64,000 bases of DNA from a virus: positions 5,102-69,101 of IMG/VR virus record IMGVR_UViG_3300020196_000026; one strand, 5' to 3'. The translations under genes were made by a program, and so were the position numbers. This document shows positions 11,412-43,600 of this stretch, one piece after another. The notes beneath the pieces were generated by a model that saw only the letters and a program-made list of their open reading frames with translations, had not been told where the DNA came from and did not search any database. Position 1 is the stretch's first letter, and each line of letters opens with the position of its first letter.

Positions 11412-12413
11412 ATGCCTGCTCAGAGCAAGAAGCAACAACGCTTTTTTGGTTTAGTTAAGGCTATTCAAGAAGGCAAAGCTACTGGCTCTGGTAAGGCTGA
11501 GCAAGCTGCGGCAAGTATGTCTGAAGAGGATGTGCGTGACTTTGCCAAGACGGAGCATGAAGGTCTACCGGAAAGCAAAAAGGAATCCATGGATCCCAAC
11601 GTAAAACAACTACTTAACTATGCTGCCATCAGTGCAGGAGTAGGTCTTGGCGGCGTGGGGCTCTATGGCCTTGGTAAGTATCTGCATGATGAATCTATGT
11701 TTGGTTTACCTGGCCAAGAGAGTCGTTTAAAGAGTATGGAGAAGCGTATTGCTATTCCAAAGAGCCACAAGATAGAAAAGTATCTACCTAATGATATAGC
11801 TAGCCCTACTGATATGCTGCCAGAGAAAGCAGACGAAACCACTTCGGATCTTTCTCAGGAGACTATAGACGACATGGAGAATCCTAAGGAACTCAGTGAG
11901 AAGGCGTCTGGATGGGGTGAGTGGATCACAGAGCCGCTGGTGTATGGTATGGCTACCCCAACTGCAATGTTAGCTCCGGGTATTCTTACCTTCATGCTTG
12001 GCACTCGACTTATCGATAAAGCCCGTAAGGAAAAGATGGAATCTAAGATTGAAAAGGCTAAGAAAGAATTTGAAAAAGTTCTTTCAAAACAATCCTCTGA
12101 GCTTCAACTGCAGGTCGATGGTTTAGTAAAACAGGCTATTGATCCAATTCCCCCTGACAAGATTCAGAGAACGCCAGACCCCCATGGACCAGGATTGAAC
12201 ATTCCGGGTGCCGCTTTTGCTTTAGGCCTTACCCCCGGCATAGGGATGCTGCTTGGCTGGTGGTATATGCAAAACAAAATGAAGAACGATGAGGACAGAG
12301 CTAAGCTCAAGAGCATGCAGAGTTTGCTTAAGCGCGATATTGCTTCCGGTGCTTTTGCATCGGGTGTTGATCTTGAAGAAACCACCGAAGGTAAACCAAA
12401 ATTTAAACTTTAA
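11412..12413 (+). CDS. DUF3008-like N-terminal domain fused to three hydrophobic segments
   Basis: MPAQSKKQQRFFG...SMSEEDVRDFAKTEHEGLPE resembles DUF3008; segments are preceded by KES, KAS and KQA. Confidence 0.6.
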   Translation: MPAQSKKQQRFFGLVKAIQEGKATGSGKAEQAAASMSEEDVRDFAKTEHEGLPESKKESMDPNVKQLLNYAAISAGVGLGGVGLYGLGKYLHDESMFGLPGQESRLKSMEKRIAIPKSHKIEKYLPNDIASPTDMLPEKADETTSDLSQETIDDMENPKELSEKASGWGEWITEPLVYGMATPTAMLAPGILTFMLGTRLIDKARKEKMESKIEKAKKEFEKVLSKQSSELQLQVDGLVKQAIDPIPPDKIQRTPDPHGPGLNIPGAAFALGLTPGIGMLLGWWYMQNKMKNDEDRAKLKSMQSLLKRDIASGAFASGVDLEETTEGKPKFKL

Positions 12414-12430: not shown

Positions 12431-15400
12431 ATGCCTATGCCTGGTGCAGATGACTTAAATCAACTCGTAGCTCCCTCTGCTCCAGTACTGAGAGGCTTTA
12501 ATGATTACCGCATTACTCGTAAGAACATTTTTGACGGTGTAAAGAATGCGGTATTGTCAAAGTTTCCTTTGCAGAACACTCGATACACTGTCGAGCTCTC
12601 GGGCCTAGACTACAGCCGTTCAGAACCCTACAGTATAAAGGAACAGCAAGAAGCTTTGATGCAGAATCAGAGTCTTTATATTCCATTGCGGGGTCGCCTG
12701 GTAATGAAGGATAACGTTACCGGTGAGATTCTGGATAGGACTGATAAATCTATTACTCTCGCCAGAGTACCTTATCTTACAGATCGTGGTACTTTTATTA
12801 AATCAGGTAGTGAATACACTGTAGCCAATCAGTCTCGGCTGCTTGCAGGACCATACGTTCGTAAGCGTAAGTCTGGTGAATTTGAGGCGCACTTTAACAC
12901 TATGCCTGGCAAGGGTCGTGGTTTTCGTATGGCATTCATGCCAGATACCGGAAAGTTTGTTGCTGAGATTGGGCAGTCCGTTGCTCCTGCTTACCCAATG
13001 TTTAAGGCCTTAGGTATTGATGACTCTATTCTTGAGCGCACCTGGGGCAAAGAACTCCTGGAGTCAAACAAGATCGGCTCTACCTATGACGCAGCTCGTA
13101 TCTATGAACGACTAACCAATAGTCCTTCAAAGGGATTAGATGATGCCACAATCTATCAAGGCATCAAGGATGCTCTTTATAAGACTGAATTAGACCCCGA
13201 GGTTACTCGTCGTACTCTGAGCTACGCCGAAGCTATCAAAAAGCAGGCAGATGTACCTCTGCGCGGCACTCTTAAGATTGAAGACGAAGGTTATATTACC
13301 GTACCTGCAGGATTCGTGGACAGTGTTTTCTATGCACTCCGAGATTCTGACAAGGCTCCTGCTATCTCTCCCGTTGCCAATAAGAATAAGCTTATTGTCA
13401 TTACAGCAGAGGAGCTTAAACAGTTAAAAAAAGTCTTCCGTAAGAATTTTGAGACTACTTGCGGTTCTGGCCGCAGATTTACCTACAATATTCGCAACGT
13501 ACTGCCCCCCAGCAACGGCGAATATTGCATTGATATCGAGTGCCCAGAGCTAGAGCAACTGCGTAGAAGCCTCTTGCTCGATGCCAAGCCTCGTGGTGGG
13601 TTTAGACTAACTGTAGGTACAAAAGTTGCTGCTGATTTAAATGAATTGCTGACTGAGAAGGAAGCCGCTCCCCTGCCAACTATGCAAGACTTCGAGTATG
13701 AGCAAATGCAGCTTAACGACGAAGACCTAAGCAGAATTACCGGTAATACCTTACTACGCGTTTCTCAGAAGATTCTCAATGCTCAGCGTGGCCTTGAGGA
13801 TCAGGATGACCGTGACTCTTTGGCTTATCAGAAGTTTCTAGGCCCAGAGGACTTCTTCTCTGAGAGAATTCAGAAGGATGCTGGTGCAGCTGTCAGAACA
13901 GCTTTGTTTAAAGCTACCAATAAAGGTAATTTAAACTCTTTCCGCAATGGTGTATTCACACCAGTGCTTAACGGCGTACTTATAGGATCTGGTCTTGGCG
14001 CACCCATTGAGGAAGTGAACCCGATGGAGATTCTGGACCAGAATATGCGTGTAATTCGTACAGGTGAGGGAGGCATCGGTTCGGCTGCTCACGGCATCCC
14101 TGTTGACAGTCGTTCAGTGCAGCCTTCTCATCTCGGGTTTCTAGATCCAGTTCGTACTCCTGAGTCCGACAAAGTAGGTATTGATCTACGACTTACCGTA
14201 GGCTCCTACAAGGGCTCAGATGGCCAGATATACTCCAAGATGCGCAGAACTAAGACCGGTAAGCTAGAGCCTGTGGCGGCTCGTACGCTTATCGATTCTA
14301 TTGTTGCATTTCCTGGAGAACTTGCACGCTCGGCGAAGACAGGAGATCCAATCAGGGCGATGGTGCGTGGCCGCATTTCCTATGTCGATCCCACAGAGGT
14401 CGAATACGAAGTGCCTGCCCATAGCAACATGTTTAATATTAATTCCAACCTTGTACCTGGTATCTCAGGTGTCAAGGGTGGACGCCTGCTTATGGGCTCT
14501 AAATACTTCACTCAGGCGTTACCTGTCCAGGGTGCCGAAGCGCCCCTGGTACAGGGATTAGACCCTAATGACGCAGATGGTAGATCGTTTGAGGAACAGC
14601 TTGTGCCACACCTTGGTGCTGTTGCTGCTGAAACCGAACTTGGCAATGGTCTCGTTACTGCGATTACGCCAGAATACGTTGAGGTAAAGCACGGCAAAGA
14701 AAAACGTCGTTATGAGCTGTACAACAACTTTCCATTCAATCGCAAGACTTATATCCATAATACGCCAACGGTTAAGTTGGGAGATCAGATCAAACCGGGC
14801 CAGCTTCTGGCTAAGTCTAATTTTTCTGACGACCAAGGCAGACTTGCTATGGGTCGTAATCTAAAGGTAGCGTATACGGTTTGGGGTGACACTGAACTGG
14901 GCGGCTCTAACTTTGAAGACGGCGTAGTCATGTCTGAAACGGCCGCTAAAAAGATGTCCTCGGAGCATATGTACACTGTTGGCTATGACAGCAAAGATGA
15001 CTATGAAGCCAACTTTAACAAATTTATTTCTCTATTTCCAGGACAGTACAACAAAGAGCAGTTAGCCAACCTTGACTCTGCTACAGGTGTCGTTAGGCCA
15101 GGTACTGTTTTAAATCCTGGTGATCCTATTATTCTTGGTGTAGGTGAAAGGAGGTCTGATGTATTTGGCCTGATGAAGAAGGCCAGACCGAGCTATACGA
15201 ATAGAGCTCAGACCTGGGATCATAGCCAGCCAGGTGTTGTGACCGATGTTACCAAGAATCGCAGCGGATATCAGGTTGCAATTAAGTCCTATAAGCCAAT
15301 GTCCATAGGCGATAAGCTAGTCGGTCGTTATGGCGATAAGGGTGTTATTTCCACTATTATTCCAGACGAGGATATGCCAAAGGATAAGGAAGGCAATTCA

Positions 15401-17347
15401 TATGAAGTTATTTATAATCCCCTCGCTCTTGTCACTCGTGTTAATCCTGTGCAGGCCGTGGAAGCTGCAATGGGAAAGATTGCAGCCAAGACCGGCGTAC
15501 CTATCAAGCTTCCAGCATTCTTGGATGAAAGTTTTATAGATTTTGCACAACGAGAGCTAAAGAAAAACAAGCTTACCGATACAGAGACCCTTTATGATCC
15601 AAGACTCAATCGCAATATAGATAACGTATTTACCGGAAATCGCTATTTCCTAAACTTACATCATCAGGCAGAGAAGAAGTTGAGCGCCCGTGATGTCGGT
15701 GGCTACAGCACTGAAGAGACTCCAGTCAAGGGTGGAACAGAGGGCGCTAAGCGTATTTCTATCTCTGATATGAATGCTCTCCTTGCCCACGGCGCTATCG
15801 AAGTGATTAAGGATGCCAGACTTATCCGTGGTCAGAAGAACGACGAATACTGGCGTGCAATCAAGATGGGTACTCCGGTGCCTTCCGTTAATGTCCCCTT
15901 CGTATGGGATAAGTTTGTAGCCCAGCTCAAGGGTGCCGGAGTAAATGTAGAGCGTCAAGGCGGCGCCATAAACATTTATGGTATGACCGGTGAGGATGTA
16001 AAGAATTTATCTGGCGGCGAGGTTAAGGACTTTCGGGATATCGACTTTAAGACCGGTAAAGCCTATGACGGCGGCTTCTTCGACGAAAAGATCTTTGGCG
16101 TCAACCAGTCATTTTTCGGTCATTTCCCGCTTGCTGCCAAGATAGTTAACCCCGTCATGGAAGATGTGGTGCGATCTCTTACAGGCCTTACCAAGAAGGA
16201 TTTTGAATCCTTAGTCTCAGGCGATACGATTAAGGGCATTCGTGGTATGGGGGGACTGGAGCAGAAGCTTATTGGAATGAATGTTCCTGCGGAGATCGAG
16301 GCTACTCGTAGAGAAATCACGGGGTCTAAAGGTCAGAAACGCAGTAATGCTATTTCTAAGTTGTCATACCTGGAAGGCATGGAGAAACGTAAGATTAAGC
16401 CAAAGGATTTCTTCTGGGAAGACATGCCAGTACTGCCGCCTCGCTTTAGACCGATTACCGATACCGGCAATATGCAGATGATCTCAGATATGAACTATCT
16501 ATACAAAGAGCTGTTTAGCATGAACAGCAATCTCAAAGATCTGCAGAGTGAGCTCGGCAATGAAGCTACAGGCAAGGAGCAGCTTGCACTTTATAAGATG
16601 ATTAAGGCTACAGTTGGACTTGCAGATCCTGCTAGTGCAAAGCTTAAGCAAAAAAATGTCAATGGCATTATTAGACACATTCTAGGTAATAACCCGAAAT
16701 TCTCAATGTTCCAACGCAAAGTCTTGTCTTCTACAGTAGAAGGCGTAGGTAATGCTGTTATTACTCCAGACCCCTCGCTAGATATGGACCACGTCGGTGT
16801 ACCTGAGGATATGGCATTCTCTGTATTCCGCCCATACGTAGTTCGATCCCTCGTTGCCTCAGGGGCAAATCCTCTGGAAGCGATGAAGCAGGTTGAGAGT
16901 AGAACACCAACTGCCAAGCGAGCTCTACTCGCTGAAATGGAGAAGCGCCCGGTTATGATTACTCGAGCGCCCGTACTGCATAAGTACAACTTCATGGCAG
17001 CCAAGCCAAGATTGACCACGGGTAGCACTCTTAAACTATCGCCATCTGTTGTTGTTGGATTTAATGCAGACTTTGATGGTGATCAGATGCGGTTACACGT
17101 TCCTTCTTCTCAGAAGGCTATAGCGGAAGCCTATGATCGTATGTTGCCTAGTCGTAATCTATTGTCTGCCGCAACATTCCAGGCTCAGCCGTTTATTAAA
17201 AACGAGTTTTTATACGGTCTTTATTTAGCCAGCAAGAACTCACCAGATAAGAAAAACGTCAAGGTATTCCGCTCCAAGAATGACGTAATTCAGGCGTTTA
17301 ATCGAGGCGAGCTTAGCGCTACTGACACCGTAAAGATAGTAAGATGA
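12431..17347 (+). CDS. Phage multisubunit DNA-directed RNA polymerase: beta fused to the N-terminal half of beta'
   Basis: beta motifs GTFIKSGSEY, DPVRTPES, RLLMGSKYFTQA, NFEDG, GDKLVGRYGDKG, LHHQAEKKLSAR; beta' motifs PVLPPRFRP, RAPVLH and catalytic FNADFDGDQM (NADFDGD at 17063-17083). Confidence 0.95.
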   Translation: MPMPGADDLNQLVAPSAPVLRGFNDYRITRKNIFDGVKNAVLSKFPLQNTRYTVELSGLDYSRSEPYSIKEQQEALMQNQSLYIPLRGRLVMKDNVTGEILDRTDKSITLARVPYLTDRGTFIKSGSEYTVANQSRLLAGPYVRKRKSGEFEAHFNTMPGKGRGFRMAFMPDTGKFVAEIGQSVAPAYPMFKALGIDDSILERTWGKELLESNKIGSTYDAARIYERLTNSPSKGLDDATIYQGIKDALYKTELDPEVTRRTLSYAEAIKKQADVPLRGTLKIEDEGYITVPAGFVDSVFYALRDSDKAPAISPVANKNKLIVITAEELKQLKKVFRKNFETTCGSGRRFTYNIRNVLPPSNGEYCIDIECPELEQLRRSLLLDAKPRGGFRLTVGTKVAADLNELLTEKEAAPLPTMQDFEYEQMQLNDEDLSRITGNTLLRVSQKILNAQRGLEDQDDRDSLAYQKFLGPEDFFSERIQKDAGAAVRTALFKATNKGNLNSFRNGVFTPVLNGVLIGSGLGAPIEEVNPMEILDQNMRVIRTGEGGIGSAAHGIPVDSRSVQPSHLGFLDPVRTPESDKVGIDLRLTVGSYKGSDGQIYSKMRRTKTGKLEPVAARTLIDSIVAFPGELARSAKTGDPIRAMVRGRISYVDPTEVEYEVPAHSNMFNINSNLVPGISGVKGGRLLMGSKYFTQALPVQGAEAPLVQGLDPNDADGRSFEEQLVPHLGAVAAETELGNGLVTAITPEYVEVKHGKEKRRYELYNNFPFNRKTYIHNTPTVKLGDQIKPGQLLAKSNFSDDQGRLAMGRNLKVAYTVWGDTELGGSNFEDGVVMSETAAKKMSSEHMYTVGYDSKDDYEANFNKFISLFPGQYNKEQLANLDSATGVVRPGTVLNPGDPIILGVGERRSDVFGLMKKARPSYTNRAQTWDHSQPGVVTDVTKNRSGYQVAIKSYKPMSIGDKLVGRYGDKGVISTIIPDEDMPKDKEGNSYEVIYNPLALVTRVNPVQAVEAAMGKIAAKTGVPIKLPAFLDESFIDFAQRELKKNKLTDTETLYDPRLNRNIDNVFTGNRYFLNLHHQAEKKLSARDVGGYSTEETPVKGGTEGAKRISISDMNALLAHGAIEVIKDARLIRGQKNDEYWRAIKMGTPVPSVNVPFVWDKFVAQLKGAGVNVERQGGAINIYGMTGEDVKNLSGGEVKDFRDIDFKTGKAYDGGFFDEKIFGVNQSFFGHFPLAAKIVNPVMEDVVRSLTGLTKKDFESLVSGDTIKGIRGMGGLEQKLIGMNVPAEIEATRREITGSKGQKRSNAISKLSYLEGMEKRKIKPKDFFWEDMPVLPPRFRPITDTGNMQMISDMNYLYKELFSMNSNLKDLQSELGNEATGKEQLALYKMIKATVGLADPASAKLKQKNVNGIIRHILGNNPKFSMFQRKVLSSTVEGVGNAVITPDPSLDMDHVGVPEDMAFSVFRPYVVRSLVASGANPLEAMKQVESRTPTAKRALLAEMEKRPVMITRAPVLHKYNFMAAKPRLTTGSTLKLSPSVVVGFNADFDGDQMRLHVPSSQKAIAEAYDRMLPSRNLLSAATFQAQPFIKNEFLYGLYLASKNSPDKKNVKVFRSKNDVIQAFNRGELSATDTVKIVR

Positions 17348-17964
17348 CTCAGCCATATTCCCAACTCGTAAAGATTCACGGTAAACAGTCAATGGCTAAA
17401 CAAATGAACAAGCAATCCAAATATCATATGTTACGTCAATACCTCATGCAGAAGATTGCATACGATTCGAAGCAAGAGGAGGAGGCAATCCAGCGCCTTA
17501 AAGCGCAGGAGGCAATCATACAGAGACTAGGCCTTACAGGCCAAGTTAATTTTGTAGGTGCCTTCGGTAATAAACCTGGAATCGCCGTTCGTCCAGACGG
17601 TAAAACAGCAATAGATCCCCTAGAACAAGTTGCCTTAAATAACTTTTTGGCTAGCACTGCCCCGCTCCGTACGACCGGACAACCAGGTTATCAAGGCGGC
17701 CAGGGGGTTACTGGAACGCCGCCAGCTATGCCGCCACCAGCAAAACCTCCAGTTTCTGCAACTCCTACGGCATCAGCAAAACCTCCAGTTTCTGCAACTC
17801 CTACGGCATCAGCAAAACCTGCAATTCCAGCGTCTTCTACGCCACCACCAAAACCTCCAGTTTCTGCAACTCCTACGGCATCAGCAAAACCTCCTAAACC
17901 CGTAGTTACTAAACCTAAAGGTATTCCTAGTGGGACGGGCGGTGCAGGTATAGATGATCCATAA
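17344..17964 (+). CDS. Pro/Ala/Thr-rich protein with composite leader (alternative start 17392)
   Basis: MTQPYSQ...KQSMAKQMNKQS...YLMQKIA; AKPPVSATPTAS repeats. Confidence 0.65.
   Translation: MTQPYSQLVKIHGKQSMAKQMNKQSKYHMLRQYLMQKIAYDSKQEEEAIQRLKAQEAIIQRLGLTGQVNFVGAFGNKPGIAVRPDGKTAIDPLEQVALNNFLASTAPLRTTGQPGYQGGQGVTGTPPAMPPPAKPPVSATPTASAKPPVSATPTASAKPAIPASSTPPPKPPVSATPTASAKPPKPVVTKPKGIPSGTGGAGIDDP
17364..17411 (+). repeat. 48-nt direct repeat of 19112-19159
   Basis: actcgtaaagattca(c/t)ggtaaacagtcaatggctaaacaaa(t/a)gaacaa, 46/48 identical. Confidence 0.95.
17740..17893 (+). repeat. 36-bp imperfect tandem repeat (AKPPVSATPTAS)
   Basis: gcaaaacctccagtttctgcaactcctacggcatca at 17740 and 17776, recurring near 17850. 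Confidence 0.9.
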
Positions 17965-31177: not shown

Positions 31178-34100
31178 ATGCCTACGATTTATCTAGGCGT
31201 TAACCAAAGCTTTTCAGCCTCTGGTATAACAGCCCAAGGCTCTATTGATTCTACCTCAGGGTCGACGCTAGGCACTATTTTGCCATGCCCCGGGGTGTTT
31301 CCTTGTACTATACGTGCAAAGTCAACAGTAAAAGGATCTAGCACAGCTGTGGTCGAAGCTGTTTATTCTGGGCCAAATCATATAGTATTAAAAGAAACAT
31401 TACATGATTATATACCTGCATCTGGAGCTAGAATTCGAATTGAGAACAAGGGTATAGGTGTTAAGGTAGTCGGAGGGACCTATATAGAGAGTTTAAACTT
31501 CACTCTTACTCCTGTATTAAAACCTTACACTTATGAACCATATCGAAGCATTTCCCTCAACGGCTTGCCTGCGGAATTATTTGCTGGCACTCCTCCAACC
31601 GGGGCAGTTACCCTTAACGGAAACCCAAATAATCCAGATGATCCGCTTAACGTTTTTTCTAACTTTAATGGCTTTCAATATACTTTTGCTGAGGGTCAAT
31701 TAAGCGAAGCTTGCAATATTCTTTGGACCGGAGGAACTACAGGGAATCCACCATTAGCTATAAACGTTTCTGGACTTTGGACAAACGACCGCGCTCAATA
31801 TGTACTGGATTCAGGTGATACCCTATTACCTTATTACACTCCAGTAAATATTAAATATCCTCTCTTTACTGCAGGGGAAAGTCCAGAACTTTGGATTATA
31901 GACTACGATCCTGGAGGTGAGTCGTATTATGATCCTGAGGCAAATAATAGATCCGCCTCTAATCTTATTGCTGTTAATAATGCTCCAGATTTTAACTGTT
32001 TTGATTCTACTACTAAACGTTTAAAAGCATCTACTTTTGGTACTCAAAGTCATCCTAACTTTATTAAATCTCTGTGTGCTTTACGAACGGAAGAGTCTTC
32101 TTATGCAGGATTTTCATATTTAGGAATCAAATCAAATTTAAGTTTGTTTTTAGGGGCTTTTGCAAATATCGGAGTTCCTATAGATTCGGATTGGCCTATA
32201 AAGTTTTTTCAATTTTATGACTACGCTGCGGGTGGTACATCCCCAAAAAATATAGCTCCAACAAAGCCATCAATAGGCATTAATACAAATATAGTTAGTG
32301 TATACGCTAACATTGGAATCCCACAAACACTTAATGCCTTATGGGAAAAATCTAGTCCTACTGGTTTAAGACATAGTCGTTACAGCGACATTAAAGCTAC
32401 GCAATACGGCTATGTATTGCTTAACGAAGACACTAAACATTTAGAGTTTATGTTTACCGCACATGTAGATCCTTGGATGGAATCTGCTGAAGCACAAGTA
32501 ATAAATAAACTTATGCGTGCACCTCCAAGAAGTGCGGATCACCTTCCTGCTCTTAATATGATGCTAGGCTGTGATCCTCGTACTGGAACAGCGGGCGAAT
32601 CTTTATATAAGGTTAATGATGTAACTATACGTGGGTGGCTTGATACAGATCAGATTATACACGGCGGTGGAGGGCACGTCATTGCTCTTGGTACATACAA
32701 TGGCGCCATAGTCAACAACGGCAAAGTTACAGTTTGGGGCAGCAATAGATGGGGCCAACTAGTTCTTCCAGAGCCGATGCGGAGTACTTCATTTACAATT
32801 ACAGACGTAGCAGTATCCAATGCTCCTCCGGTTTTAACAAATTCAAATGACTCTAATTTTTATTACACTGTTTATTCAGAAGAAGCTGCAGAAAAAGCTG
32901 CTAGAAGTTTTATCTACGGCCTATCTGGCAACGAAAATAATGTTTTTAAATTTAGTTATCCTGAGAGCTTTGATTATAGATACGGAGGGCACATCAACTA
33001 CGAGAATCTTCCAGGGCACGTTGTAGTTGTTACTTCGACTGGCCGTGTTTATGCTTGGGGAAACAACAAGTATTATCAGTGCGAAGTTCCAGATGATATT
33101 AGCCTTGTTGACTCAGCTGGGAATATTAATACTACACAACTATTAGATCCCATTATAGAGGTATCTGCAGGCGCTTATCACACGGTAGCTCGCTCAAAGA
33201 CCGGCGTTATTTATGTGTGGGGGGCAGGAGGTCCTTGGGCGTCGCAGAATGATACGGCTATTATCGATGGCCGAGTTAGTATATCTAATCATAATGTACG
33301 TCCAAATACTGGAACTCTAGCTTTTAATGCAACAAATACGACAGTACACTTTGGCCAAAGTATGTTGAAATTGGGCAGCGCTAGCGAAACTACACAGGGA
33401 TATGTAGGTTTAGCTACTCCAAGTGCAGCACCCATAGGACTCAGTAGCTACGCGAGTGACACTCATGCCACTTCATTGACTCCAAATTATACCGCTGTTT
33501 TTACAATAACAAAAAGTATAAAAGGAACACCCGTCGATATCGGGCAAAAAACTAATGCTGGATTTGCCCCTGTAGTCACGGATGACGCTGGTGGGGAAAA
33601 TTCGTCAAGAAGAATGAAGGGTATGATTGCAGCGGGGGCCTTTCATACTGCAATAATAGACAACCAGCTTAAGATACAGTGTGTAGGGGCGGGGCGCGGC
33701 CCCACCACCCAGCAAATGGCCCACCCCAATTCTAGTTATAGTTTCAATAATTCTACAATACCGCAGTGGGGTAGTAGCTACACTGATGGCGATGGCGGTG
33801 AATCAAGATTCTCCACTTATCCACACTATTGCCAAAGTCTTAGTCAATATAGAATTCCCGCCCCTAACGCCGACAACACCACTACAAGTGCTGGTTTATT
33901 CAGGTATTCTGCCTTTGGCCAGAACAATCAGATACAAAGTAAATCCAAATACTTTCAAGATCTTCTATTTAAAAAAGTTATTTGTGGTCCATTTAGTACA
34001 CATGGAATAATTTACTCTGCTTCTAAAATACCTCCCAGCGGCGGCACTGAAGTTTTTACAGCTAAGGACAAGGTTTGGCTTCACGGCCGTGTTGTATCCT

Positions 34101-37100
34101 GGGGTTGTGCATTTAGCTTTAGATCGTTCCAAACGAATGGAACTAGTTCTACTGGAATTCTAGGTCCTAGGTACACCGCTAACGATAACACTGATCCCGC
34201 CACTTATAACGCCCAGCCCTCTAATAATCCTGCAGGTACTTTATCTGGGCTGGGATCCGTTCTTAGAATAGGAAACTCCGCGGGTAATGACGTAGACAGA
34301 ATGTTCGAAATTATAAATCGAGTACCTAACAGCACCGGCCAACCTGGAATATATCCGCTGGCCCCAGGCGCCGGCAACAACCATTTAGTTTTAGTTGGAG
34401 TGCCTTCTCCCAATTCAGAGGCAGTCTCTAATCCATCTGTTGGCGTTGTAAGCAATAATGCTAATGAAAGCCAACCTGCATACAATACTGACTGCCCAGT
34501 AACTATCAGTCGATTTAAAGTTAAGGATGTGGCAGTCTGCGGTGAATTTGCGACATACATTGGCTTTTATGATAAATTTACAAGAAGCTCGCTAAAGCTA
34601 GGTGCATCTGATAATGATTTAGTGTCAAGTGGTGCCACCTTTGATTATCAGGCATCAGTATTTTTTACTGGCAATGATCCGTATAGAGATTCAAACATCT
34701 TTTCTATTGCTGAGTCTGCCTATAGAGGTAGATTTAATGCTATAAACCCCTATGTAGGAAATAATGTTGCTAGAAGAAATAGAAAGAGAAATGAGACAGG
34801 TATATATTATTGGTTAGGAGATACCGGTCTTCCAATGAAGACCAGATCTTTTCACTTTGGGCCAGTTAAATATACAGATACAGGAACTGGAACTCCTCTT
34901 GGTGTAACTAATAGTATTAGTTTAAAGTATGTGCTTCCAACAACGGCTCTTGCTAGTGCTAATCTAGCGGTAGTCATAGTAAATATGGATAATAGGCCGG
35001 TTTCTTGGTTGGGATATATTTATTCGCCGACTTACCGAGCGCCGTTAGATTTATCCTTATTGCCCAGCATTCCAATACAGAGTTTTAAGACCGGTAAAGC
35101 GCATATATTGGCAGTATCCGCAGGCGATTGGCCTGTGGCTACATCTCTCAGGGAGCGTAAGGCAGTTCCAAAGCTAGCAAGCGAACTAAGTACCAGATTA
35201 TTTCAGTCAGTGACAGGTAATGGAATTGCTACAAAGCTTATTGCCGATGAGTCAAATTTTCGTTATTATCGTCCTGTATTACTTGCATGGGGTGCAGGTG
35301 ATGGCCGTGAATTTGGTTCAACTTTACTATCTTTGGCATCTCCATCCAACGCCTCTGCAAGTGGTATATTTGGTCCAGGATCAGGAGTTGATAGCGTATT
35401 TGGTTTAGGGTTCCTAGATACTCATGCTGTATCACGCTATGACGCAACATATACTACTGGTACAGTTCAAGGCCTTGCTGTCAATGCTGATGCTTGGGAA
35501 AACTATTACGGACATTATCGTTGGAATGTAAACAGTAGATCCGACGGGTTATATGACCGTCCGGAGCTTCCTGGTATTTCTTTAGGAAGCGCTTCTGGTA
35601 GTGCTTATTCCGCTATGTTTGGTCCTCCAGGACATCATGCAGTAGAAGCGTTACAGTCACTACTCGGATTCCAACACCATCTATACCCAAGTACCTTTAC
35701 CAATCCGGCGCTTGGTGCAAGAGGATTGCTTAACGGAGCTAATAAGTCTGCTATTCCTGCAGCAGCCTTTATGCCGTTTATCACATCTTCTAGTCAAACA
35801 GGCAACAAAGCAAGATGCTGTATTACAGCTGCGGAAGAGTCTCCTAGCTTTGAGTCCTTAAACTCTTTGCAAGAGTATCATTCTCCTCTTGGCTATACGC
35901 AGCAGACATATACGGACTTTGTCGTTGATTACGCAGCAGGATCTATGCACAGTGCTGTGCTCTTCCGATCAAGCTGCGCTAGTTGGACTCAAATCAACTC
36001 AAATGCCCACCTAGCCAACATGAATGCGTTTTCAACGCACTTCATGACAGACGTCAACGGATCTATATCGTTTGGCCAAAGAAAAGTTTGTAAACTTGGA
36101 ATCGTAGGCTATGGCTGCGAAGGGCAGACCGCAGGCTCTGCAAGAATACTGCAGGATGGTTCTGTAGCTCCCCTGGTGCCTAGATTGTTTGGCACTGACG
36201 CTAAAGTCTACTGCGGTGATTCCTACACTCTGGTCACTAACCCAATTAGAATCGTAGAGGCGTCAAGTGGAAGCGTAGCTCTTACAGGCTTTAACTCTGG
36301 CTCAGGATTTACCTCAAAGACTATTCCTATTTCTATCCCTAGCTCTGCCTATTCTAAGAGAATTCGAGGTCTAGATGTAAAGATACAGGTAGTGGCTTCT
36401 ACCGGCACAGTGAATTTACCTATGTCCTCTTGGGACATAACGATTCCCTATAAGCAAAATGAGTGGGTGGTCTTTAAGCGTCTAAAAGCAAATCTTGATA
36501 CTACTCCAGCGGACGCCTTTATTCAGGCCTCAACAATTGCAGCCACTTTTAGGATTTCCGATAGATTCTCTGCGGCTTCTGCCTATGCCTATAACGGAAC
36601 GTACGAAGCCTACACTGAGCGGGGCCTCGATCCAAACAATAGCTCATCCTATACAGGTACATCTCCTTATTTTTTAAAGCCCATAAGCACAAGTGCAGCT
36701 GTACCTGCTCTAGATAAGTCTGGATGCTACTATCCTGTAGCCGTAGACCCCTCAACATTCGCAGTAACAAATCAGACTTGGAGTGTCAACGGTACTACTC
36801 CGGCCGCCACGGTTCTTCCGTTTAATGAGCCGACAATCAATGTTATTATCAAGGATTACACCTCAACGTTAAATTATGCCGACTGCTCTATAAACATTAC
36901 CTTAGAGATTGAGGTAGATGCAGAGGAGTTGCCTTATATTTTATATGGTCCAGACAAAGCTGGAGTATGGAACGAACTGCCCGGAGTAAGCCCGTCTTTT
37001 GGTGCAGATATAAGTTCATTTAATCCAAACGACGATGTGAGCTCAGGTTCCTCAACTAAAAGTCGATGGATTAGAAACTGTCCTTGCGAAATAGACAATC

Positions 37101-37636
37101 AACTTTACCGAAGGAAATACCCGGTTGGTTATCCTGCAGATGCTCGTTTTATATGTGGTACTAAAAAATATGGCCCATCGGGAAATAGAGAAACCGCAGC
37201 TGCAGATGCTCTAAATAGTACCTTTAATTACTCGAATTTTTCTGAAGAGGCGCAACAATTAAAACATAAAATAACTGCAAATTTCTTTAGTGTTTTTGAC
37301 ACTATTCCACACAGGCCCTTTTTAGACATTAATAATCAAATAGCTGCACTGAATCCCTCTTTACAGGTTTTACCTCGAACGGCCTTTATAAACCAGGAAA
37401 TTAATTTAGGTACGCCGCCTAATATTAATACAAGGAGCAGCATTATCGGAGTAAATATTTCTATAAATAGAGTCCTTCGAACACCTTCACATAGTATCGT
37501 TCTTAATGTAGTTTCAGCCGCTCTTACAAAACCCACACTACAAACGTCTGTGGTTATATGTTCTGCAAATGTACGTATGACTATTAACTCTAACTTAGGT
37601 AGAATCAGCGGCTTAAACTCAACAAACTGCCAGTAA
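31178..37636 (+). CDS. Giant (2152 aa) RCC1-repeat tail fibre/adhesin-like protein
   Basis: VWGSNRWGQL, YAWGNNKYYQCEVP, SAGAYHTVA, AAGAFHTA and AAGSMHSA repeats separated by long inserts. Confidence 0.75.
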   Translation: MPTIYLGVNQSFSASGITAQGSIDSTSGSTLGTILPCPGVFPCTIRAKSTVKGSSTAVVEAVYSGPNHIVLKETLHDYIPASGARIRIENKGIGVKVVGGTYIESLNFTLTPVLKPYTYEPYRSISLNGLPAELFAGTPPTGAVTLNGNPNNPDDPLNVFSNFNGFQYTFAEGQLSEACNILWTGGTTGNPPLAINVSGLWTNDRAQYVLDSGDTLLPYYTPVNIKYPLFTAGESPELWIIDYDPGGESYYDPEANNRSASNLIAVNNAPDFNCFDSTTKRLKASTFGTQSHPNFIKSLCALRTEESSYAGFSYLGIKSNLSLFLGAFANIGVPIDSDWPIKFFQFYDYAAGGTSPKNIAPTKPSIGINTNIVSVYANIGIPQTLNALWEKSSPTGLRHSRYSDIKATQYGYVLLNEDTKHLEFMFTAHVDPWMESAEAQVINKLMRAPPRSADHLPALNMMLGCDPRTGTAGESLYKVNDVTIRGWLDTDQIIHGGGGHVIALGTYNGAIVNNGKVTVWGSNRWGQLVLPEPMRSTSFTITDVAVSNAPPVLTNSNDSNFYYTVYSEEAAEKAARSFIYGLSGNENNVFKFSYPESFDYRYGGHINYENLPGHVVVVTSTGRVYAWGNNKYYQCEVPDDISLVDSAGNINTTQLLDPIIEVSAGAYHTVARSKTGVIYVWGAGGPWASQNDTAIIDGRVSISNHNVRPNTGTLAFNATNTTVHFGQSMLKLGSASETTQGYVGLATPSAAPIGLSSYASDTHATSLTPNYTAVFTITKSIKGTPVDIGQKTNAGFAPVVTDDAGGENSSRRMKGMIAAGAFHTAIIDNQLKIQCVGAGRGPTTQQMAHPNSSYSFNNSTIPQWGSSYTDGDGGESRFSTYPHYCQSLSQYRIPAPNADNTTTSAGLFRYSAFGQNNQIQSKSKYFQDLLFKKVICGPFSTHGIIYSASKIPPSGGTEVFTAKDKVWLHGRVVSWGCAFSFRSFQTNGTSSTGILGPRYTANDNTDPATYNAQPSNNPAGTLSGLGSVLRIGNSAGNDVDRMFEIINRVPNSTGQPGIYPLAPGAGNNHLVLVGVPSPNSEAVSNPSVGVVSNNANESQPAYNTDCPVTISRFKVKDVAVCGEFATYIGFYDKFTRSSLKLGASDNDLVSSGATFDYQASVFFTGNDPYRDSNIFSIAESAYRGRFNAINPYVGNNVARRNRKRNETGIYYWLGDTGLPMKTRSFHFGPVKYTDTGTGTPLGVTNSISLKYVLPTTALASANLAVVIVNMDNRPVSWLGYIYSPTYRAPLDLSLLPSIPIQSFKTGKAHILAVSAGDWPVATSLRERKAVPKLASELSTRLFQSVTGNGIATKLIADESNFRYYRPVLLAWGAGDGREFGSTLLSLASPSNASASGIFGPGSGVDSVFGLGFLDTHAVSRYDATYTTGTVQGLAVNADAWENYYGHYRWNVNSRSDGLYDRPELPGISLGSASGSAYSAMFGPPGHHAVEALQSLLGFQHHLYPSTFTNPALGARGLLNGANKSAIPAAAFMPFITSSSQTGNKARCCITAAEESPSFESLNSLQEYHSPLGYTQQTYTDFVVDYAAGSMHSAVLFRSSCASWTQINSNAHLANMNAFSTHFMTDVNGSISFGQRKVCKLGIVGYGCEGQTAGSARILQDGSVAPLVPRLFGTDAKVYCGDSYTLVTNPIRIVEASSGSVALTGFNSGSGFTSKTIPISIPSSAYSKRIRGLDVKIQVVASTGTVNLPMSSWDITIPYKQNEWVVFKRLKANLDTTPADAFIQASTIAATFRISDRFSAASAYAYNGTYEAYTERGLDPNNSSSYTGTSPYFLKPISTSAAVPALDKSGCYYPVAVDPSTFAVTNQTWSVNGTTPAATVLPFNEPTINVIIKDYTSTLNYADCSINITLEIEVDAEELPYILYGPDKAGVWNELPGVSPSFGADISSFNPNDDVSSGSSTKSRWIRNCPCEIDNQLYRRKYPVGYPADARFICGTKKYGPSGNRETAAADALNSTFNYSNFSEEAQQLKHKITANFFSVFDTIPHRPFLDINNQIAALNPSLQVLPRTAFINQEINLGTPPNINTRSSIIGVNISINRVLRTPSHSIVLNVVSAALTKPTLQTSVVICSANVRMTINSNLGRISGLNSTNCQ

Positions 37637-37637
37637 A

Positions 37638-40600
37638 ATGCCTATTTGTAATCTTATTACCTCTTCCGTAGCTCCGAGCACTATTGGAAAACCCCCGCTA
37701 CAAAATGCTGCTATAGTGGGGGGGTTAAATTGCTCCGGTAGTTTAAAGGCAATATTAAAACTTTCATTTGCATCAGAGACTAACTCATACGCCTCTGTTG
37801 TAGCTCGTATTCCTGAAGAGAGTTTCATTGTTATACCCCCAGATATAACAATAACCGGGAGAGCTGTTAGGTGTAAATCTGATGTGGGTCGTTACGAAGA
37901 CCCCCTAATAATACCCCTCCCAAAAAACTTACTTCCTGCTTATCTTAATACAATCAGGGCACTCTCCGGCGTTCGTAACCGATCAATATCATCCGTCCGA
38001 AAGCCACAAATATTTGTATATCCTTCAACTTTTTTATCTACCTATAATGTAAGTACTGAGAGCCGTGTTGTTATAGGTACGGGGGGTTTTTCTGTATTTG
38101 TAGGCGCTAATAGTAGTAACTTACAAATTACGTGTAATGTAGCTAAATCAACAATAAATACGGGATTAGTTTTACGGCCTATTTCAAGTACTTTAAATAC
38201 TACAACAGGTTCTAATAAATTTGTACTTATAGGCGCACTAAATGGGTCTACTATTTCTTGTTCTTGTGGGTTAATTTCGCCGTCTCTGATCCGTACAGTT
38301 ACAGTTAGCTCAACCCCACAAATAACTTCAACACTTATCAGTATTGCTACTAGCACGGATAGGCAAGTTAGTCTCACTAGTCCGGCTAGTTGTATTCCAA
38401 CTAGCAGTACTACTGCTAGGCTGGGTATGCAACATCCTCTCACTAGTCCGGCTAGTTGTATTCCAACTAGCAGTACTACTGCTAGGCTGGGTATGCAACA
38501 TCCTCTCACTAGTCCGGCTAGTTGTATTCCAGCACTTTCTTTAAGTGCGGAGCTGAGTGAAATTAGTGGACCAATCCAAATAAATTCAACTCCACCAATA
38601 ACCCCAACACTTAGCAGTATTACTGTGGGGCTGCGTGTGGAATTTAGTCTTACTAGTTTAACTGGGTGTACTCCAAGAGCACTTTCTTTAAGTGCGAACC
38701 TACAAAGAATAAGTCCACCCCCTATAGTTTCACTATTATCAAACCCCGTACTATGCAGCTCTCTCTTACCTACAGGGGGCTATGCTGCACCTCTGTTTGT
38801 TCCTGGAAGTAATTCAAATTACTTTAATCAAGTTCAAGAGTATGTACGTTATCCTTTGCCTACCGCCACATCTGTAGCTGATGCATTAGACGAGAATGTA
38901 CTGCCAGTACAGTATTCTCACTCTGTATTTGGCTCTATGTTGCTCAGACTTACTCCTGGTTATGCTTCTAGCGCGGGTGTATCTTTTAGCTTATTTGCTA
39001 CTCAACTGGGTTCATCAGCCGCACAGTATGCGGTTACGCCCAATTACGACGCTAAAATAATTCTGCTGCGTACTTCTACACTGGATTCGCAGAGCGTACA
39101 GCAAACAGTATTTGGTAGTCTTGCAGTAGGTCCAGATGTAAATCGAGTTGCCCCTTACTCCTCATTTCCTCGATCTTACAATAGTTCTGTTGCATCTATG
39201 GGGTCTGGTGGATCGGCCTCTCTTGTCTCTGTGTCAGCAGACGTCACAGGTACATATTCTGCTCCAACTGTTCCTATGCTGTTTATGGGTTCCACGTTGG
39301 TTAGACACAACTACAATCAAGCACAAAGCACTCTAAAACCATCTGCCGTCGCTACAGACTACTACTATCCTGAAACCTCAGCTATAAAGATAACTAAGGC
39401 CAGAGTGGAGACAACCACAGGTATTTATAACGAAGGCCTATCTCCCATATACAGTTCTCCGGCATTTAGACTTTTAAGCCCAACAGAGTACTTAAATTAC
39501 TCTGCCAGCGGTGCTAATTTTAGTATTAATGCCGCGGTGATGGCCCAGGATGGCACAACCAATTCCCCAGCGCACATTCATGCATCAGATGCAATGATGA
39601 CATTCCTGCCTATTAAGACTGGTGCTCGCTATGCATATTCTCGCTATAGACCGTCTGCACTTAGTCTTTTTGCGACTGTAGCTGATGCAGGATTTGAAGG
39701 CGAAATTGGAGATATTTCGTTTAGCGCAAGTTTTATTGATATAGATGGAGGGGCCGTAGACCCTAATGAGCTATATTCCGGAGACGCTGATTGTATTTTA
39801 CGGGTATCTATTATTCCGTATGTACATTCCGAATTAGACTCTTTTATTTATATAGATATTCCTGTGTTAGGGATATCCACTATTAATCCAGATAGGGTGA
39901 TTATTGACTCATCTTATAGGTGGTTTATTGAGCAGTGTTTAATTGGCGGATCCTTTGTCAACACGCACGGTGTCAGATCGCTTAAAGATTTTTACAATGC
40001 CCCCAATAATGCTCCAACTCTTGTAACAAAAGCTGTGCTTGCAGTAACTCGTCCGATAGTTAATATTGCTACAGATCAAGGAGAATCGGAGCAACAAAAG
40101 CTATCCAACAGCGGTGACAGAAATTTGCTTATGGGCGAGTTCTCTGTAGATATTTCAAGGCAAGATTTGTCTTTTGATACAGCGCTAAAGGTGAATGTTG
40201 ACACTGCAAGTGGCTCTGCAATCAGTATATACACCTCAGACTCTAATCCTGCGGTACAGGCGTCTTCGTTTGATCCTAACAGTTTGCATTTGTTTGTTAA
40301 ATTTGATGGCACTTTGGGCTGCAGAAGAGTTGTGTCGGGCTATGCCGGTCCTCAAGTCCTTGATAATTTAGATCCAATTTTGCCAAAGAAAGTAAGAGAA
40401 TTTATAGATACTGGCGGCTTGTTCTCAGAAGTTAAGGTTGGAGAAAGTATCATCGCTTTGCTGTCTCAGGGTGTCACTGGTAAAAAGCTATTCTTATGGG
40501 GTTACAACACTTATGGACATTTAGATGTTCCTGCGGCTGTTGATGCGAATTTCTTAACCCAGGGATATATCGAAAATGTAAAACAGTTTGACTTTAATGC

Positions 40601-43600
40601 AGGTCATATTGCAGTCATTTTGGATAATGGAAAGTTATACAGTTGGGGTAATAAGAAATCCTCGGTTTGGGCCGATCCAAATATATCTCCAGTAAGTAAT
40701 TTAGATATCGGAGGAGATTTTTCTGTAGCTATTGTTAAGCGTTTTAATTCTGCTAATAATGGTGTAATCAATGTCATTGAACAATACGGAGATTGCCCCC
40801 CTTCGGTTAGCGTTCCTACTGCAGGAATAACTGTAGCAACTCGACAAGAGGTTTGGCCTTGCGATCCTAATGGGTCATGCGAGGCGGGAGAAGTCGTATA
40901 TGCCGGAAAAGTATTAGCGTGCGGCAAAGGTCATGTAGTGCTGTTAAAGAGCGATAACACCGTAGTTTGCTGGGGAGACAACGACTACGGTCAATCCACC
41001 GTGCCGTCTGGTTTGTCGAATGTAATTGCCGTCGACGCGGGCGACTATCACACTATCGCTCTTAAGAACGATAAAACTGTAGTTTGCTGGGGTCGCAATA
41101 ACCACGGCCAAACTGATGTACCAGGGGATCTTCGAGCTAAGAGCATTTCTGCCGGCGGTGATTTTTGCGTAGCTTTGCGCACAGCTCAGTCTACAGATGT
41201 GAGCTCATCTGTTGGTTCCATAAATGATGAGGAGATTGAAGATACTGCAGCCTGCTGGGGCAGAAACAACAGAGGTCAGTGCGACGTACCTACTTGCGAG
41301 GGTATTTCCTACGATCCAACTTTTCATAAATACAGAATGAGGTTTTGGGCTGTTTACTGCGGCTGGGATCACACCGTCGGCATACGACGAGACGACGTTC
41401 AGAGCAAATGGGTTACTCAGCACCCAGAGTTTAATAGATTTTTATTTTATAACTTAATTAAAATACCCCTTAAAACTTCGAGTGGGCAGACAATTTTTGA
41501 TTGCTTGAGAAGACTTATTGAGACCTATGAGCCAGGGTCAAATCCCCCAGTGTTTGATGGCATAGTAAGCTCTACGGGGGCTGAATATTCTTTTACACCT
41601 ATCTCCGGAACAAACCAGTATAGAACAGCAGAAGTCTCGGGCGGTTCAAGAGACTACAGACTTCTCTATACAGCCAGTCTGCCTCCGACGCTTGTTGTGC
41701 AATTTCGTAATACAGGTAGTACTGATTGGCAAGACCTTACATTTAGTAGAGATGTTTATAACTACGAACAAAACCTTATATCTACAGATAATTTTACAGA
41801 TATTTTAGTAGGTTTAGAATCTGGTTTCGATGTAGGATGGAATGGTATTCCAGTAATGCCTACATGGTGTGTTACAGTTGGTTGCCATTCGACGGGTGGA
41901 GGGGAAGGGGACGATGGCTGTTTTTTGGGGATGAGGATTGCAAAAAATGGGGCTAATAACGAAAATATAACAGTTAACTACATTACTTCGGATTCTTCAT
42001 CCCCTAATTTAGATCAAAGTTGGGTTGCTTGGGGTAACCCTATGGCTTGGGATGCCTCCGTAGATAAAACTAAATATTCCCCATACTATCCCCAGAGCTC
42101 CGCTTTAGACATAAGTGTTAGTGGAGATATAGTTCCAGCTAATATAAGGCGTAGTTCTAGTATTATCCTTAAAAATATTTTTAGTTATGTGGGCTGCGGT
42201 AAACAACTTGGTATTGGGACGAGTAGTTTTAATACACAGTATCCTGTCTTGAATTCATTAGAGGCCAATAGTGGCCCTTTACATACCACTATGTACCTAG
42301 GTCCTAGATCTTTAGAGATAATTGATACTGCTAATAATTTTCTTTCTATAACCTCTTCAGCATCAGGACAGTCACTAGATAGATATGAGTTAGGATCTTT
42401 TGCTATATTTATATCTGATCTGGGTCTTACTAGATTTTTTAATATACCTACTCCTGTAAATGCAGAGGCTATAAATCTATACGCTACTCCTGAAAAAAAC
42501 GAAGATTCAATAACCCCACCTAAGTATTTAAATAGGGATACCCTTGCTATTGGATTTAATAATAAATCTGTTTATGTAGAACGGTTTAAGGGCATTCTGC
42601 CGTCTGGTTATTCTATAGTAAGTAACGGTTCATCTTCTTTACCCTCCGGCACTCCAAACTCAGCAAGTGGTTATCACCTTCTATTTTCTGGTACGGTCGG
42701 TGGCTCTAGTATAAATTTAGTAATGACCGGCGCTTATAGTAGTAAATATGGCGCTGCAAATAGTATTTCAATTCCATTTGATCCTAACTATTCATCGTCG
42801 TCCTTAAATTCAGCCTGGCTTCCCGATCTAGGAATAACAATTAAGAGGGTTCGAATAATACGGCATCAGCTTGATGCACAAGCCGGAAATAACGGACGTA
42901 AGACTTACATTCCTAGTAAACATGTAACTGTGTTTAGAGATCAAAATTCTTTGAAAGCTTATGGTCTAGTTATCTCAAACTCTAGTGAGCAGCGTGTTGA
43001 TAACATTAAATCGCTTTATAGTATGAATTTATTTAGTACTCCTAATGCAGCTGTATATGTGAGTAAAGGTAATCGATCTGTAATAGCAGTTAAAAATCAT
43101 AATATTCATATTGAGAATAGCTATCCTTATTTCACTGAATGGGCAGGGAATAATACTAAAGGACAGCTTGATTTAAATTTATTTGGACCTTTTGCAATTA
43201 ATCCAAACCAAATGTTGCCTGGTGAGTATAACAGTTACTGGTTAATGAATTATAATCAAACTAATATAGGCCATACTCAACTTCCTGGTTTAGGTTATGG
43301 TTTTAAAAAAGTAGTTTGTGGTTCGTTTCATACTTTAGCTATCGACGAGGATGGCTTTGTGCATGCTTGGGGATTAAATACTGCAATTAATCCTCCTGTA
43401 TCAAGTATCATGCCATGGGATCCAATTTTGTTTTCAAAGACCGGTTGTGGTGATTATGTTCCAGCTAATCTTACAGGATACTTTATAAAAGATTCTAGTC
43501 TCCCGTTGTGTGAGGGTGAATCAATAGGGTTTGTATGTAACAGAGCTCCTTGTTCTTGGCCTGCAGGCTCTTCAAATCAAGACAGAAACTTACAGAATGG

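Follow-up and report, generated by a model that had tools for sequence, protein, structure and literature searches.

Domain organization of the polymerase gene

The stretch of viral DNA analyzed here (64,000 nucleotides, positions 5,102 to 69,101 of IMG/VR record IMGVR_UViG_3300020196_000026; referred to below as the window) makes up most of a 69-kb viral contig that is estimated to be ∼40% complete. It contains an open reading frame (ORF) of 1638 amino acids (aa) that encodes the beta subunit of a multisubunit RNA polymerase (RNAP) fused to the N-terminal half of beta′. Pfam matches to Rpb2_3 and Rpb2_6 (2.1e-43) cover the beta part and are followed by matches to Rpb1_1 and Rpb1_2 in the beta′ part, which carries the NADFDGD motif. 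The closest named relative of the protein is gp206 of Salmonella phage Arash (1525 aa; ∼31% identity over 87% of the query). The subject of this study is a domain that is inserted in the beta lobe of this polymerase. An earlier note, made from the sequence, had described it as a segment of ∼130 aa that interrupts the lobe region, resembles a degenerate 2H phosphoesterase and is bracketed by K-x-A sites. The features of the gene are listed below.

12431-17347, +, gene for the fusion of beta and the N-terminal half of beta′, 1638 aa (Pfam, NADFDGD motif)
13226-13735, +, clade-specific insertion, residues ∼266-435, between 'ELDPEVTRRTL' and 'ITGNTLLR'
13241-13258, +, N-flank motif K271-Q-A-D-V-P276, pattern K-x-[ASG]-x-[VI]-P, shared by all 33 insert-bearing homologues
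13256-13627, +, 2H-SAK-like folded domain, catalytically degenerate, residues 276-399 (hhalign, AlphaFold2 model)
13388-13396, +, K320-L321-I322, replacing the first H-x-S/T motif (aligned to 'AHISV')
13604-13612, +, R392-L393-T394, replacing the second H-x-T motif (aligned to 'FHITV')
13622-13630, +, K398-V399-A400, pattern K-x-[ASN], directly after the last strand, in 33 of 33
13628-13735, +, variable C-terminal linker, residues 400-435, predicted to be disordered (mean pairwise identity 0.38)
13658-13666, +, K410-E411-A412, a conserved island in the linker; in 28 of 33 members a K-x-[AST]-[AE] lies 6 aa or more beyond the last strand

The three K-x-A sites proved to be placed exactly as first described (13241-13249, K271-Q272-A273; 13622-13630, K398-V399-A400; 13658-13666, K410-E411-A412).

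The segment is a real insertion in the lobe region, and it is somewhat longer than first described. In BLASTP, query residues 40 to ∼270 align with residues 29 to ∼260 of Arash gp206, after which query residue 436 aligns with Arash residue 265. Residues 1-520 were searched against 5.8 billion proteins, which gave 58 homologues, and the residues opposite query positions 255-450 were counted in an alignment of these homologues with the first 700 residues of the query (59 rows). There were 188-216 such residues in 33 of the 59 rows (query included), 30-31 in 24 rows, 70 in protein P0038 and 365 in protein P0055. These counts, together with the jump in the Arash alignment, establish an insertion of ∼165 aa, composed of a folded part of ∼125 aa and a linker of ∼35 aa. 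On the protein it is bounded by 'ELDPEVTRRTL' on the N-terminal side and 'ITGNTLLRVSQK' on the C-terminal side. In a local profile alignment of insert-less relatives, the insertion site corresponds approximately to Salmonella RpoB residues 401-418, ∼25 residues ahead of DDIDHLGNRR, which we take to be the beta2/lobe region in E. coli naming. Local alignment to Salmonella RpoB also indicated that the phage beta lobe is much smaller than the bacterial one and that the SI1 region is absent from it. A global hhalign alignment of the insert-bearing family to the same protein forced the insert onto SI1; it is unreliable at query residues 217-430 and was set aside. The extra domain is thus located in a lobe loop and is missing from related RNAPs, and the core on both sides of it is intact.

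Lineage-specific insertions of multisubunit RNAPs are usually built from polymerase-type modules. In bacterial beta subunits, for example, the E. coli beta-i4/SI1 insertion in the lobe is built of BBM2/SBHM repeats. The insert in the window is similar to these insertions in that it is clade-specific, dispensable-looking, located in a surface loop of the lobe and absent from close relatives. It differs from them in being homologous to a phosphoesterase family, with no repeat of RNAP-type modules. No bacterial RNAP beta chain was found among the Foldseek PDB matches listed, with no direct comparison made to BBM2/SBHM domains.

Homology of the insert to 2H-SAK phosphoesterases

When the insert was searched alone, it was recognized by neither Pfam nor PHROGs, and the only matches, to DUF6996 and RPC3, were sub-threshold and were dismissed as chance. 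A phmmer search with residues 265-440 against 1.84 billion representatives retrieved just two proteins outside the RNAP family, P0064 and P0065. The former (3712 aa, a tenascin-like, eukaryote-like protein with FN3 repeats and a fibrinogen end) gave nine matches through a 38-residue stretch ('TVPxGxFDSF' versus 'TVPAGFVDSV') and was judged to be a repeat-amplified chance match. The latter (293 aa; library-wide E-value 7.4e-4) matches Pfam PF22547, the 2H-SAK or 'Swiss Army Knife' 2H phosphoesterase domain, with an E-value of 3e-15. P0065 consists of two tandem copies of the domain, the second with 'KAHISV' and 'FHITCA', and the insert aligns with the two copies in BLASTP at 2e-9 and 2e-8. A search for relatives of P0065 among proteins of 161-513 aa gave 295 matches at E ≤ 0.01, and the best 120 of these 295 are mostly free-standing proteins of ∼180 aa that are annotated as PF22547. 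A profile of the insert family, built from 26 rows over residues 271-404, was compared by hhalign with 104 free-standing PF22547 proteins and matched them over 114 columns (probability 98.8%, E-value 6.9e-17), and a hidden Markov model (HMM) of the insert directly matched 2H-SAK proteins in hmmsearch. Judged from these comparisons, the insert is a homologue of the 2H-SAK family.

The insert retains the order of the conserved blocks of PF22547 (L-x-G, VP, the G-[KR]-x-F-x-[YF] loop, PEL..LRRS..L..P, and the last strand with a basic residue), and both the insert and the 2H-SAK proteins are flanked by K-x-A motifs. It differs from the family in that it lacks both H-x-S/T motifs, lies below the Pfam reporting level, resides inside an RNAP subunit, and has invariant residues of its own (R278, R304-D305-x-D307, C344). 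The ESM Atlas yielded no usable match, and a PDB sequence search found no relative of the insert or of a free-standing 2H-SAK protein. A tblastn search with the free-standing 2H-SAK protein P0067 gave no match in 50,697 phage records, which leaves the family without an available cultured phage. No PF22547 match was found in the contig of the window, in the Arash genome or in G001, a complete relative of the window (174.5 kb, 100% complete).

Loss of the catalytic histidines

Catalysis by 2H enzymes requires the two histidine residues of the H-x-S/T motifs. In the alignment of the insert with 2H-SAK proteins, 'AHISV' corresponds to 'NKLIV' in the window, so that the histidine is replaced by K320 and the serine by I322, and 'FHITV' corresponds to 'FRLTV', with R392 in place of the histidine. 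The four positions are occupied in the 33 insert-bearing clade members as follows.

Position 320 (first histidine): R 19, K 7, F 3, N 2, H 1, Q 1
Position 322 (first S/T partner): V 14, I 11, A 3, E 3, T 2
Position 392 (second histidine): R 30, K 3
Position 394 (second T partner): V 11, A 9, S 5, I 4, T 3, H 1

Both histidines are kept in none of the 33 members, and the S/T partners are hydrophobic in most of them. With the pair gone in the entire clade, 2H catalysis in its ordinary form is precluded for this domain. Both histidine motif patterns are present in 107 of 119 P0065 relatives among the matches listed. The earlier note had proposed a degenerate 2H relative in the beta lobe with the motifs in the right places and both histidines replaced, and had raised the question of free genes for the same domain with intact histidines. 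The profile alignment and the replacements K320 and R392 bear out the former, and the free-standing 2H-SAK proteins answer the latter in the affirmative.

Predicted structure of the insert

An AlphaFold2 prediction from the family alignment alone reached a predicted local distance difference test (pLDDT) score of 73.5, with just one of five models above 70. When 2H-SAK rows were added to the alignment, the pLDDT rose to 84, with a predicted template-modelling (pTM) score of 0.73. In the first model, the pLDDT of the C-terminal linker was 48-65, in line with disorder of this region. The last ∼8 query columns of alignment A2 are misaligned; they are located outside the folded core. The weak Foldseek matches in the PDB are repeatedly 2H proteins, all non-significant, with template-modelling (TM) scores of 0.25-0.38. 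They comprise the Deinococcus CPDase (drCPDase, 5h7e; E-value 0.24, probability 0.60), the rotavirus VP3 phosphodiesterase, the AKAP18 central domain, CNPase and the Arabidopsis CPDase. Among viral models (BFVD), one match had an E-value of 1.6e-4 and a TM score of 0.72, to an uncharacterised marine-phage protein, and among the weak matches were proteins annotated as cyclic phosphodiesterase-like, RNA ligase domain or VP3. As there was no significant PDB match, the 2H assignment rests on the homology to the Pfam family, the two H-x-S/T motifs of that family and the consistent, non-significant structural signal.

Conservation and descent of the insert

Within the clade, the folded domain (residues 276-399) has a mean pairwise identity of 0.68, the same as the N-terminal core of beta (residues 1-264; 0.68), and the flanking segments are far less conserved (0.41 for the N-flank, residues 265-275, and the value listed above for the C-terminal linker). 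This contrast shows that the domain is under purifying selection, at the level of the neighboring beta core and long after catalysis was lost. Residues R278, R304, D305, D307, R348, R378, S380 and K398 are invariant in the clade, and C344 is present in 32 of 33 members. In a FastTree phylogeny of 330 residues downstream of the insertion (63 rows; P0003, which is the Arash protein, and P0043 are not part of it, and the anchor pattern was unmatched in both), the 33 insert-bearing proteins form one clade with a support of 100, which shows a single origin of the dead insert.

2H-SAK cassettes in other polymerases and in polyvalent proteins

Copies of the domain with both histidine motifs were found in other lineages of this RNAP family, namely P0038, P0062, L013, L014, L016/L017, L019 and L060. 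Such copies are carried by seven of 41 RNAP-like ORFs read from loci L013-L060, including L016 and its twin L017, and the lineages with intact motifs belong to at least two other parts of the tree. In P0038, HAD-like, DUF5661 and 2H-SAK modules (the latter with 'AHITV' and 'FHISFA') are located just ahead of 'GLDPEVT', ∼15-20 residues upstream of the insertion site in the window. L016 (4369-11445) contains SET-like, HAD-like and 2H-SAK modules and an intein; its matches to SET, LNS2/HAD-like and 2H-SAK each lie slightly below the curated Pfam cut-off. The copy in L014 is the top match of the insert HMM outside the clade (48.6 bits), and its 'TACGNGRKF' loop is shared with the insert in the window ('TTCGSGRRF'). 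The RNAP-borne cassettes resemble the insert in the host protein and in the lobe region that they occupy. They differ in that they retain both histidine motifs, are placed before the 'ELDPEVT' helix rather than after it, are accompanied by HAD-like, DUF5661 or SET-like modules, and occur in branches of the tree other than that of the window. Precomputed Pfam labels on P0038 and P0062 mean that fusions with intact motifs are already implicit in databases; the dead version escapes the Pfam model.

A closer kinship of the insert to the RNAP-borne than to the free-standing copies was considered and not adopted: the free-standing proteins score nearly as high as L014, and the deep nodes of the tree are open. 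P0062 was also considered as a natural split of beta at the insertion site, and this was dropped. The related locus L016 has the N-terminal part of beta within the same 2358-aa ORF, so that a gene called too short, or a variant, is the likelier explanation of P0062.

Several further proteins of this kind were observed. P0055 carries a 365-residue stretch (∼270-610) at the very site used in the window, with a degenerate 2H-like copy and a further domain. The stretch has no Pfam match, and the further domain resembles the C-terminal domain of P0072, a 2H-SAK protein ('THDG..YDL...LEHATP'). In a 62-kb viral contig, L008:9866-11743 encodes a 625-aa polyvalent protein with a 2H-SAK domain that has both histidine motifs, a GNAT acetyltransferase and a HAD-like phosphatase, and its linker 'ALKVAADLNEK' almost repeats 'TKVAADLNEL' of the window. 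Inteins recur across this polymerase family: they are indicated by the precomputed Pfam labels LAGLIDADG_3 and Intein_splicing for P0026 and P0028 (RNAP homologues of the dead-2H clade, 2034-2045 aa), and the intein of L016 is located at residues ∼1124-1498.

Phage polyvalent proteins, according to the passages of Iyer et al. (2017; PMC5512222) that concern them, carry 2H domains and are probably packaged in the capsid, and inactive versions of their effector domains are known. The similarity to these proteins lies in the presence of 2H domains of this kind in multidomain proteins. In contrast to them, the window protein has a single dead domain and no effector array, and a 2H domain in a multisubunit RNAP is not described in those passages. 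2H enzymes and a 'Swiss-army-knife' HAD family are also mentioned in the relevant part of a jumbo-phage survey by Aravind and colleagues (PMC7824862).

K-x-A motifs at the borders of the domain

A single K-x-A tripeptide is common, and by our estimate several are expected by chance in a protein of this size; conservation at fixed positions, as seen in the alignment, is non-random. The bracketing of the domain by such sites stood up to comparison across the clade (33 of 33, 33 of 33 and 28 of 33 members for K271, K398 and K410, respectively). K-x-A-A also occurs between the two copies of P0065 ('SKTAAVP') and at the junctions 'LKVAADLNE' of L008, 'TKVAAD' of P0038 and 'SKTAAKIP' of L016. Free-standing 2H-SAK proteins have K-x-A-A ∼10 residues ahead of the domain and at the C-terminal end of the protein, an N-terminal leader of ∼25 aa that ends in K-x-A, and a C-terminus that lies 1-7 residues past the C-terminal K-x-[AGS]. 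This pattern of flanking motifs fits a processing or docking signal. The C-terminal motif may also belong to the domain itself, because K398 aligns with the basic residue of 'HITVAVR' and the free-standing proteins end just past the motif. In the N-arm of the capsid protein (P0185 and 116 relatives), a leader that varies in length and sequence precedes a conserved K-[VA]-[ASQ]-x-A, with the lysine in 99 of 117 proteins; this motif is a possible maturation site or a feature of an N-arm helix. As a test of cleavage sites, the capsid protein thus provided just the conserved N-arm motif, which is suggestive and no evidence of cleavage.

The earlier note had proposed that the head protease excises the domain from a virion-packaged polyprotein. 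Neither an S78 nor a ClpP prohead protease was detected in the contig of the window, in G001 or in Arash. A search for S77 gave no match in these genomes and none in control genomes either, and is hence uninformative. With no S78 or ClpP protease detected and with the domain conserved like the beta core, the proposal of excision by the head protease has no support so far.

Genomic setting and association with virions

Two further genes of the window bear on the polymerase and on its possible presence in virions.

51076-52935, +, partner subunit gene, encoding the C-terminal half of beta′ (25% identity to Arash gp216 in tblastn over residues 1-606, E-value 4e-49)
63690-63998, +, 5′ part of the major capsid protein gene, truncated by the end of the window (tblastn with Arash gp226)

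The N-terminus of the capsid protein in the window is identical to that of a 325-aa homologue in G001. In tblastn, the neighborhood of the RNAP genes includes homologues of gp218 and gp222 of Arash and of its major capsid protein (gp226); gp218 and gp222 are structural proteins according to the annotation of the Arash record. The polymerase of Arash (gp206/gp216) is thus similar to that of the window in having a beta/beta′-N fusion with a separate beta′-C subunit and a structural-gene neighborhood. It differs in that gp206 has no insert, its genome has no 2H-SAK match at all, and its sequence identity to the window protein is limited to the value given above. In the mass spectrometry data of the Arash report (PMC10585845), Gp206 is the top detected virion protein, with 3516 spectra, and Gp216 has 1210 spectra; the authors caution there that abundant enzymes may merely co-purify. 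The Arash proteomics and the synteny with structural genes in the window make packaging of the RNAP of the window's clade in the virion plausible. The corresponding claim of the earlier note is thus supported in part: Arash gp206 is the protein most detected in virions and the gene neighborhood agrees, whereas Arash lacks the insert and is the sole source of virion data.

Other genes of the window were noted in passing. Two adjacent giant ORFs on the + strand, 31178-37636 (2152 aa) and 37638-49364 (3908 aa), have matches to RCC1 repeats or RCC1-like beta-propellers, and the larger one matches WD40_RLD at 1.1e-61 and contains seven RCC1_2 stretches. The 2548-aa structural protein gp229 of Arash is a member of the same structural module. 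ORF 11412-12413 (+) is located directly upstream of the RNAP gene, and the first ∼58 residues of its product ('MPAQSKKQQRFFGLVKAIQEGKATG...') match five PHROGs of unknown function, in which the matching stretch is N-terminal or internal in proteins of widely differing length. This suggests that the N-terminus of the product is a small shared module ahead of variable proteins. ORF 17344-17964 (+) overlaps the stop codon of the RNAP gene and encodes a Pro/Ala/Thr-rich product with three near-identical 'KPPVSATPTASA' repeats.

Interpretation

We propose that a 2H-SAK effector domain was captured into a lobe loop of a probably virion-borne RNAP, with the intact form still present in other lineages. 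As an effector-type domain, it would once have been delivered with the virion RNAP, and its catalysis would have been lost in the ancestor of the window's clade. The dead domain would be retained in the mature enzyme as a non-catalytic module of a surface loop, attached through a short N-terminal linker and a disordered C-terminal linker of ∼35 aa. Its present role is probably that of a binding module without enzymatic activity. The likeliest function would be the binding of a phosphate-bearing ligand or a nucleic acid through a retained basic cleft, and docking of a phage-specific partner protein would be an alternative function. The proposal as a whole is favored by the replacement of the histidines with arginine or lysine, the other invariant arginines, the mildly basic character of the domain and its position in the lobe, which presumably lies beside the DNA-binding cleft. 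G001 and Arash have no other 2H-SAK domain, which we count in favor of this proposal. We hold it to be highly likely that the domain is a captured 2H-SAK homologue that lost its catalysis. The statement as a whole, that residues ∼276-399 are a dead 2H-SAK copy exapted and kept in the enzyme as a non-catalytic lobe module, includes an inferred function and is put forward with more modest confidence, as the probable reading.

Several observations weigh against this proposal. The PF22547 model (cut-off 27 bits) has no match at E ≤ 1 to the 1638-aa protein or to the insert. Foldseek searches of the PDB with either model gave nothing at E ≤ 0.001, the best 2H matches having TM scores of 0.36-0.38, and the second model leans toward the 2H-SAK fold because its alignment is dominated by 2H-SAK rows. 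The difference in charge between the insert domain (median net charge +2.5, isoelectric point 8.7) and the free-standing copies (−1 and 6.5) is small. In the FastTree phylogeny, the dead clade may or may not be sister to a lineage with intact histidines. Retention in the mature enzyme is inferred from conservation, and the K-x-A islands in otherwise variable linkers are unexplained by retention and would fit a processing site.

These islands bring back the idea of excision, in which the precursor would be packaged and a maturation protease would cut at K271-x-A and at K398-x-A and/or K410-x-A, removing the dead 2H domain and leaving beta as two associated fragments; before its removal, the domain would have been a packaging handle or an auto-inhibitory plug. 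Such processing would agree with the conservation of all three motifs, with K-x-A-A at the domain junctions of 2H-SAK polyvalent proteins and RNAP-borne cassettes, with the K-x-A that ends the leader of free-standing 2H-SAK proteins, with the motif in the capsid N-arm after its variable leader, and with the abundance of the Arash homologue in virions. However, the searches for S78 and ClpP proteases were negative (that for S77 being uninformative), and a domain conserved like the core, including its surface polar residues, is unexpected for a piece that is discarded. Moreover, K398 and the C-terminal motif may belong to the domain and not to a cleavage site, linkers rich in Ala, Lys and Glu yield K-x-A through composition alone, and we know of no protease with K-x-A specificity, which also counts against excision. 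On balance, we regard excision as unlikely, though still in contention. A bolder variant, which appears to us more doubtful still, is that the loop of the beta lobe is a cargo site, in which effector cassettes (2H-SAK, HAD, SET-like, DUF5661) would enter the host inside the polymerase and be freed by a putative protease at K-x-A-A junctions, leaving beta split and functional; in the window's clade the cargo would be dead, and the processed domain or the cleavage itself would be a switch in polymerase maturation.

Alternatively, the domain might be a structural relic without a ligand or partner of its own, kept since folding or assembly of the reduced lobe depends on it. Long retention after the loss of catalysis would agree with this, as would the small size of the lobe relative to bacteria, since an extra domain might have been incorporated there as a structural element, and the binding function that we favor is a predicted one. 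Against it, the clade-specific invariant residues of surface type (R278, R304, D305, D307, R348/R349, R378) suggest a conserved interaction surface, the residue at the position of the second histidine is always basic, and the long flexible C-terminal linker points to a module that is tethered, not integral. A relic therefore seems improbable to us. Finally, with arginine or lysine in place of the histidines, the domain could still be an enzyme, or it could be a sponge for cyclic nucleotides that acts against host signalling defences in the manner of Acb1 or Tad proteins. Basic residues do occupy both former histidine positions in most members, and Aravind and colleagues, in their work on polyvalent proteins, proposed that the 2H domains of these proteins degrade nucleotide signals (PMC5512222). 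Yet no clade member has both histidines, the S/T partners are mostly hydrophobic, and a sponge would be needed in many copies, while virion-borne RNAPs are presumably few per virion. We consider this possibility very remote.

Significance

Neither 2H-SAK domains nor lineage-specific insertions of RNAP beta subunits are new in themselves. A literature search, from which supplementary files and subscription journals were absent, turned up no account of an active or inactive 2H domain within a multisubunit RNAP of a phage, and no papers on 2H-SAK by name. Under the proposal of an exapted lobe module, an enzyme domain from the RNA-repair or counter-defence toolkit of phages, a phosphodiesterase for RNA ends or cyclic nucleotides, was taken into the beta lobe, inactivated and maintained by selection across a diverse clade of uncultured phages. 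The 2H-SAK and other enzyme-like modules of the sister lineages suggest that virion-type phage RNAPs can carry effector domains. Together, these polymerases would range from active cassette through pseudoenzyme to the lack of an insert, a natural series that would be useful in studies of pseudoenzyme exaptation. The K-x-A-A junction is a candidate processing or docking signal that may be common to these polymerases, to 2H-SAK proteins and perhaps to the capsid protein, and the interest of the system would rise if these junctions prove to be processing sites.

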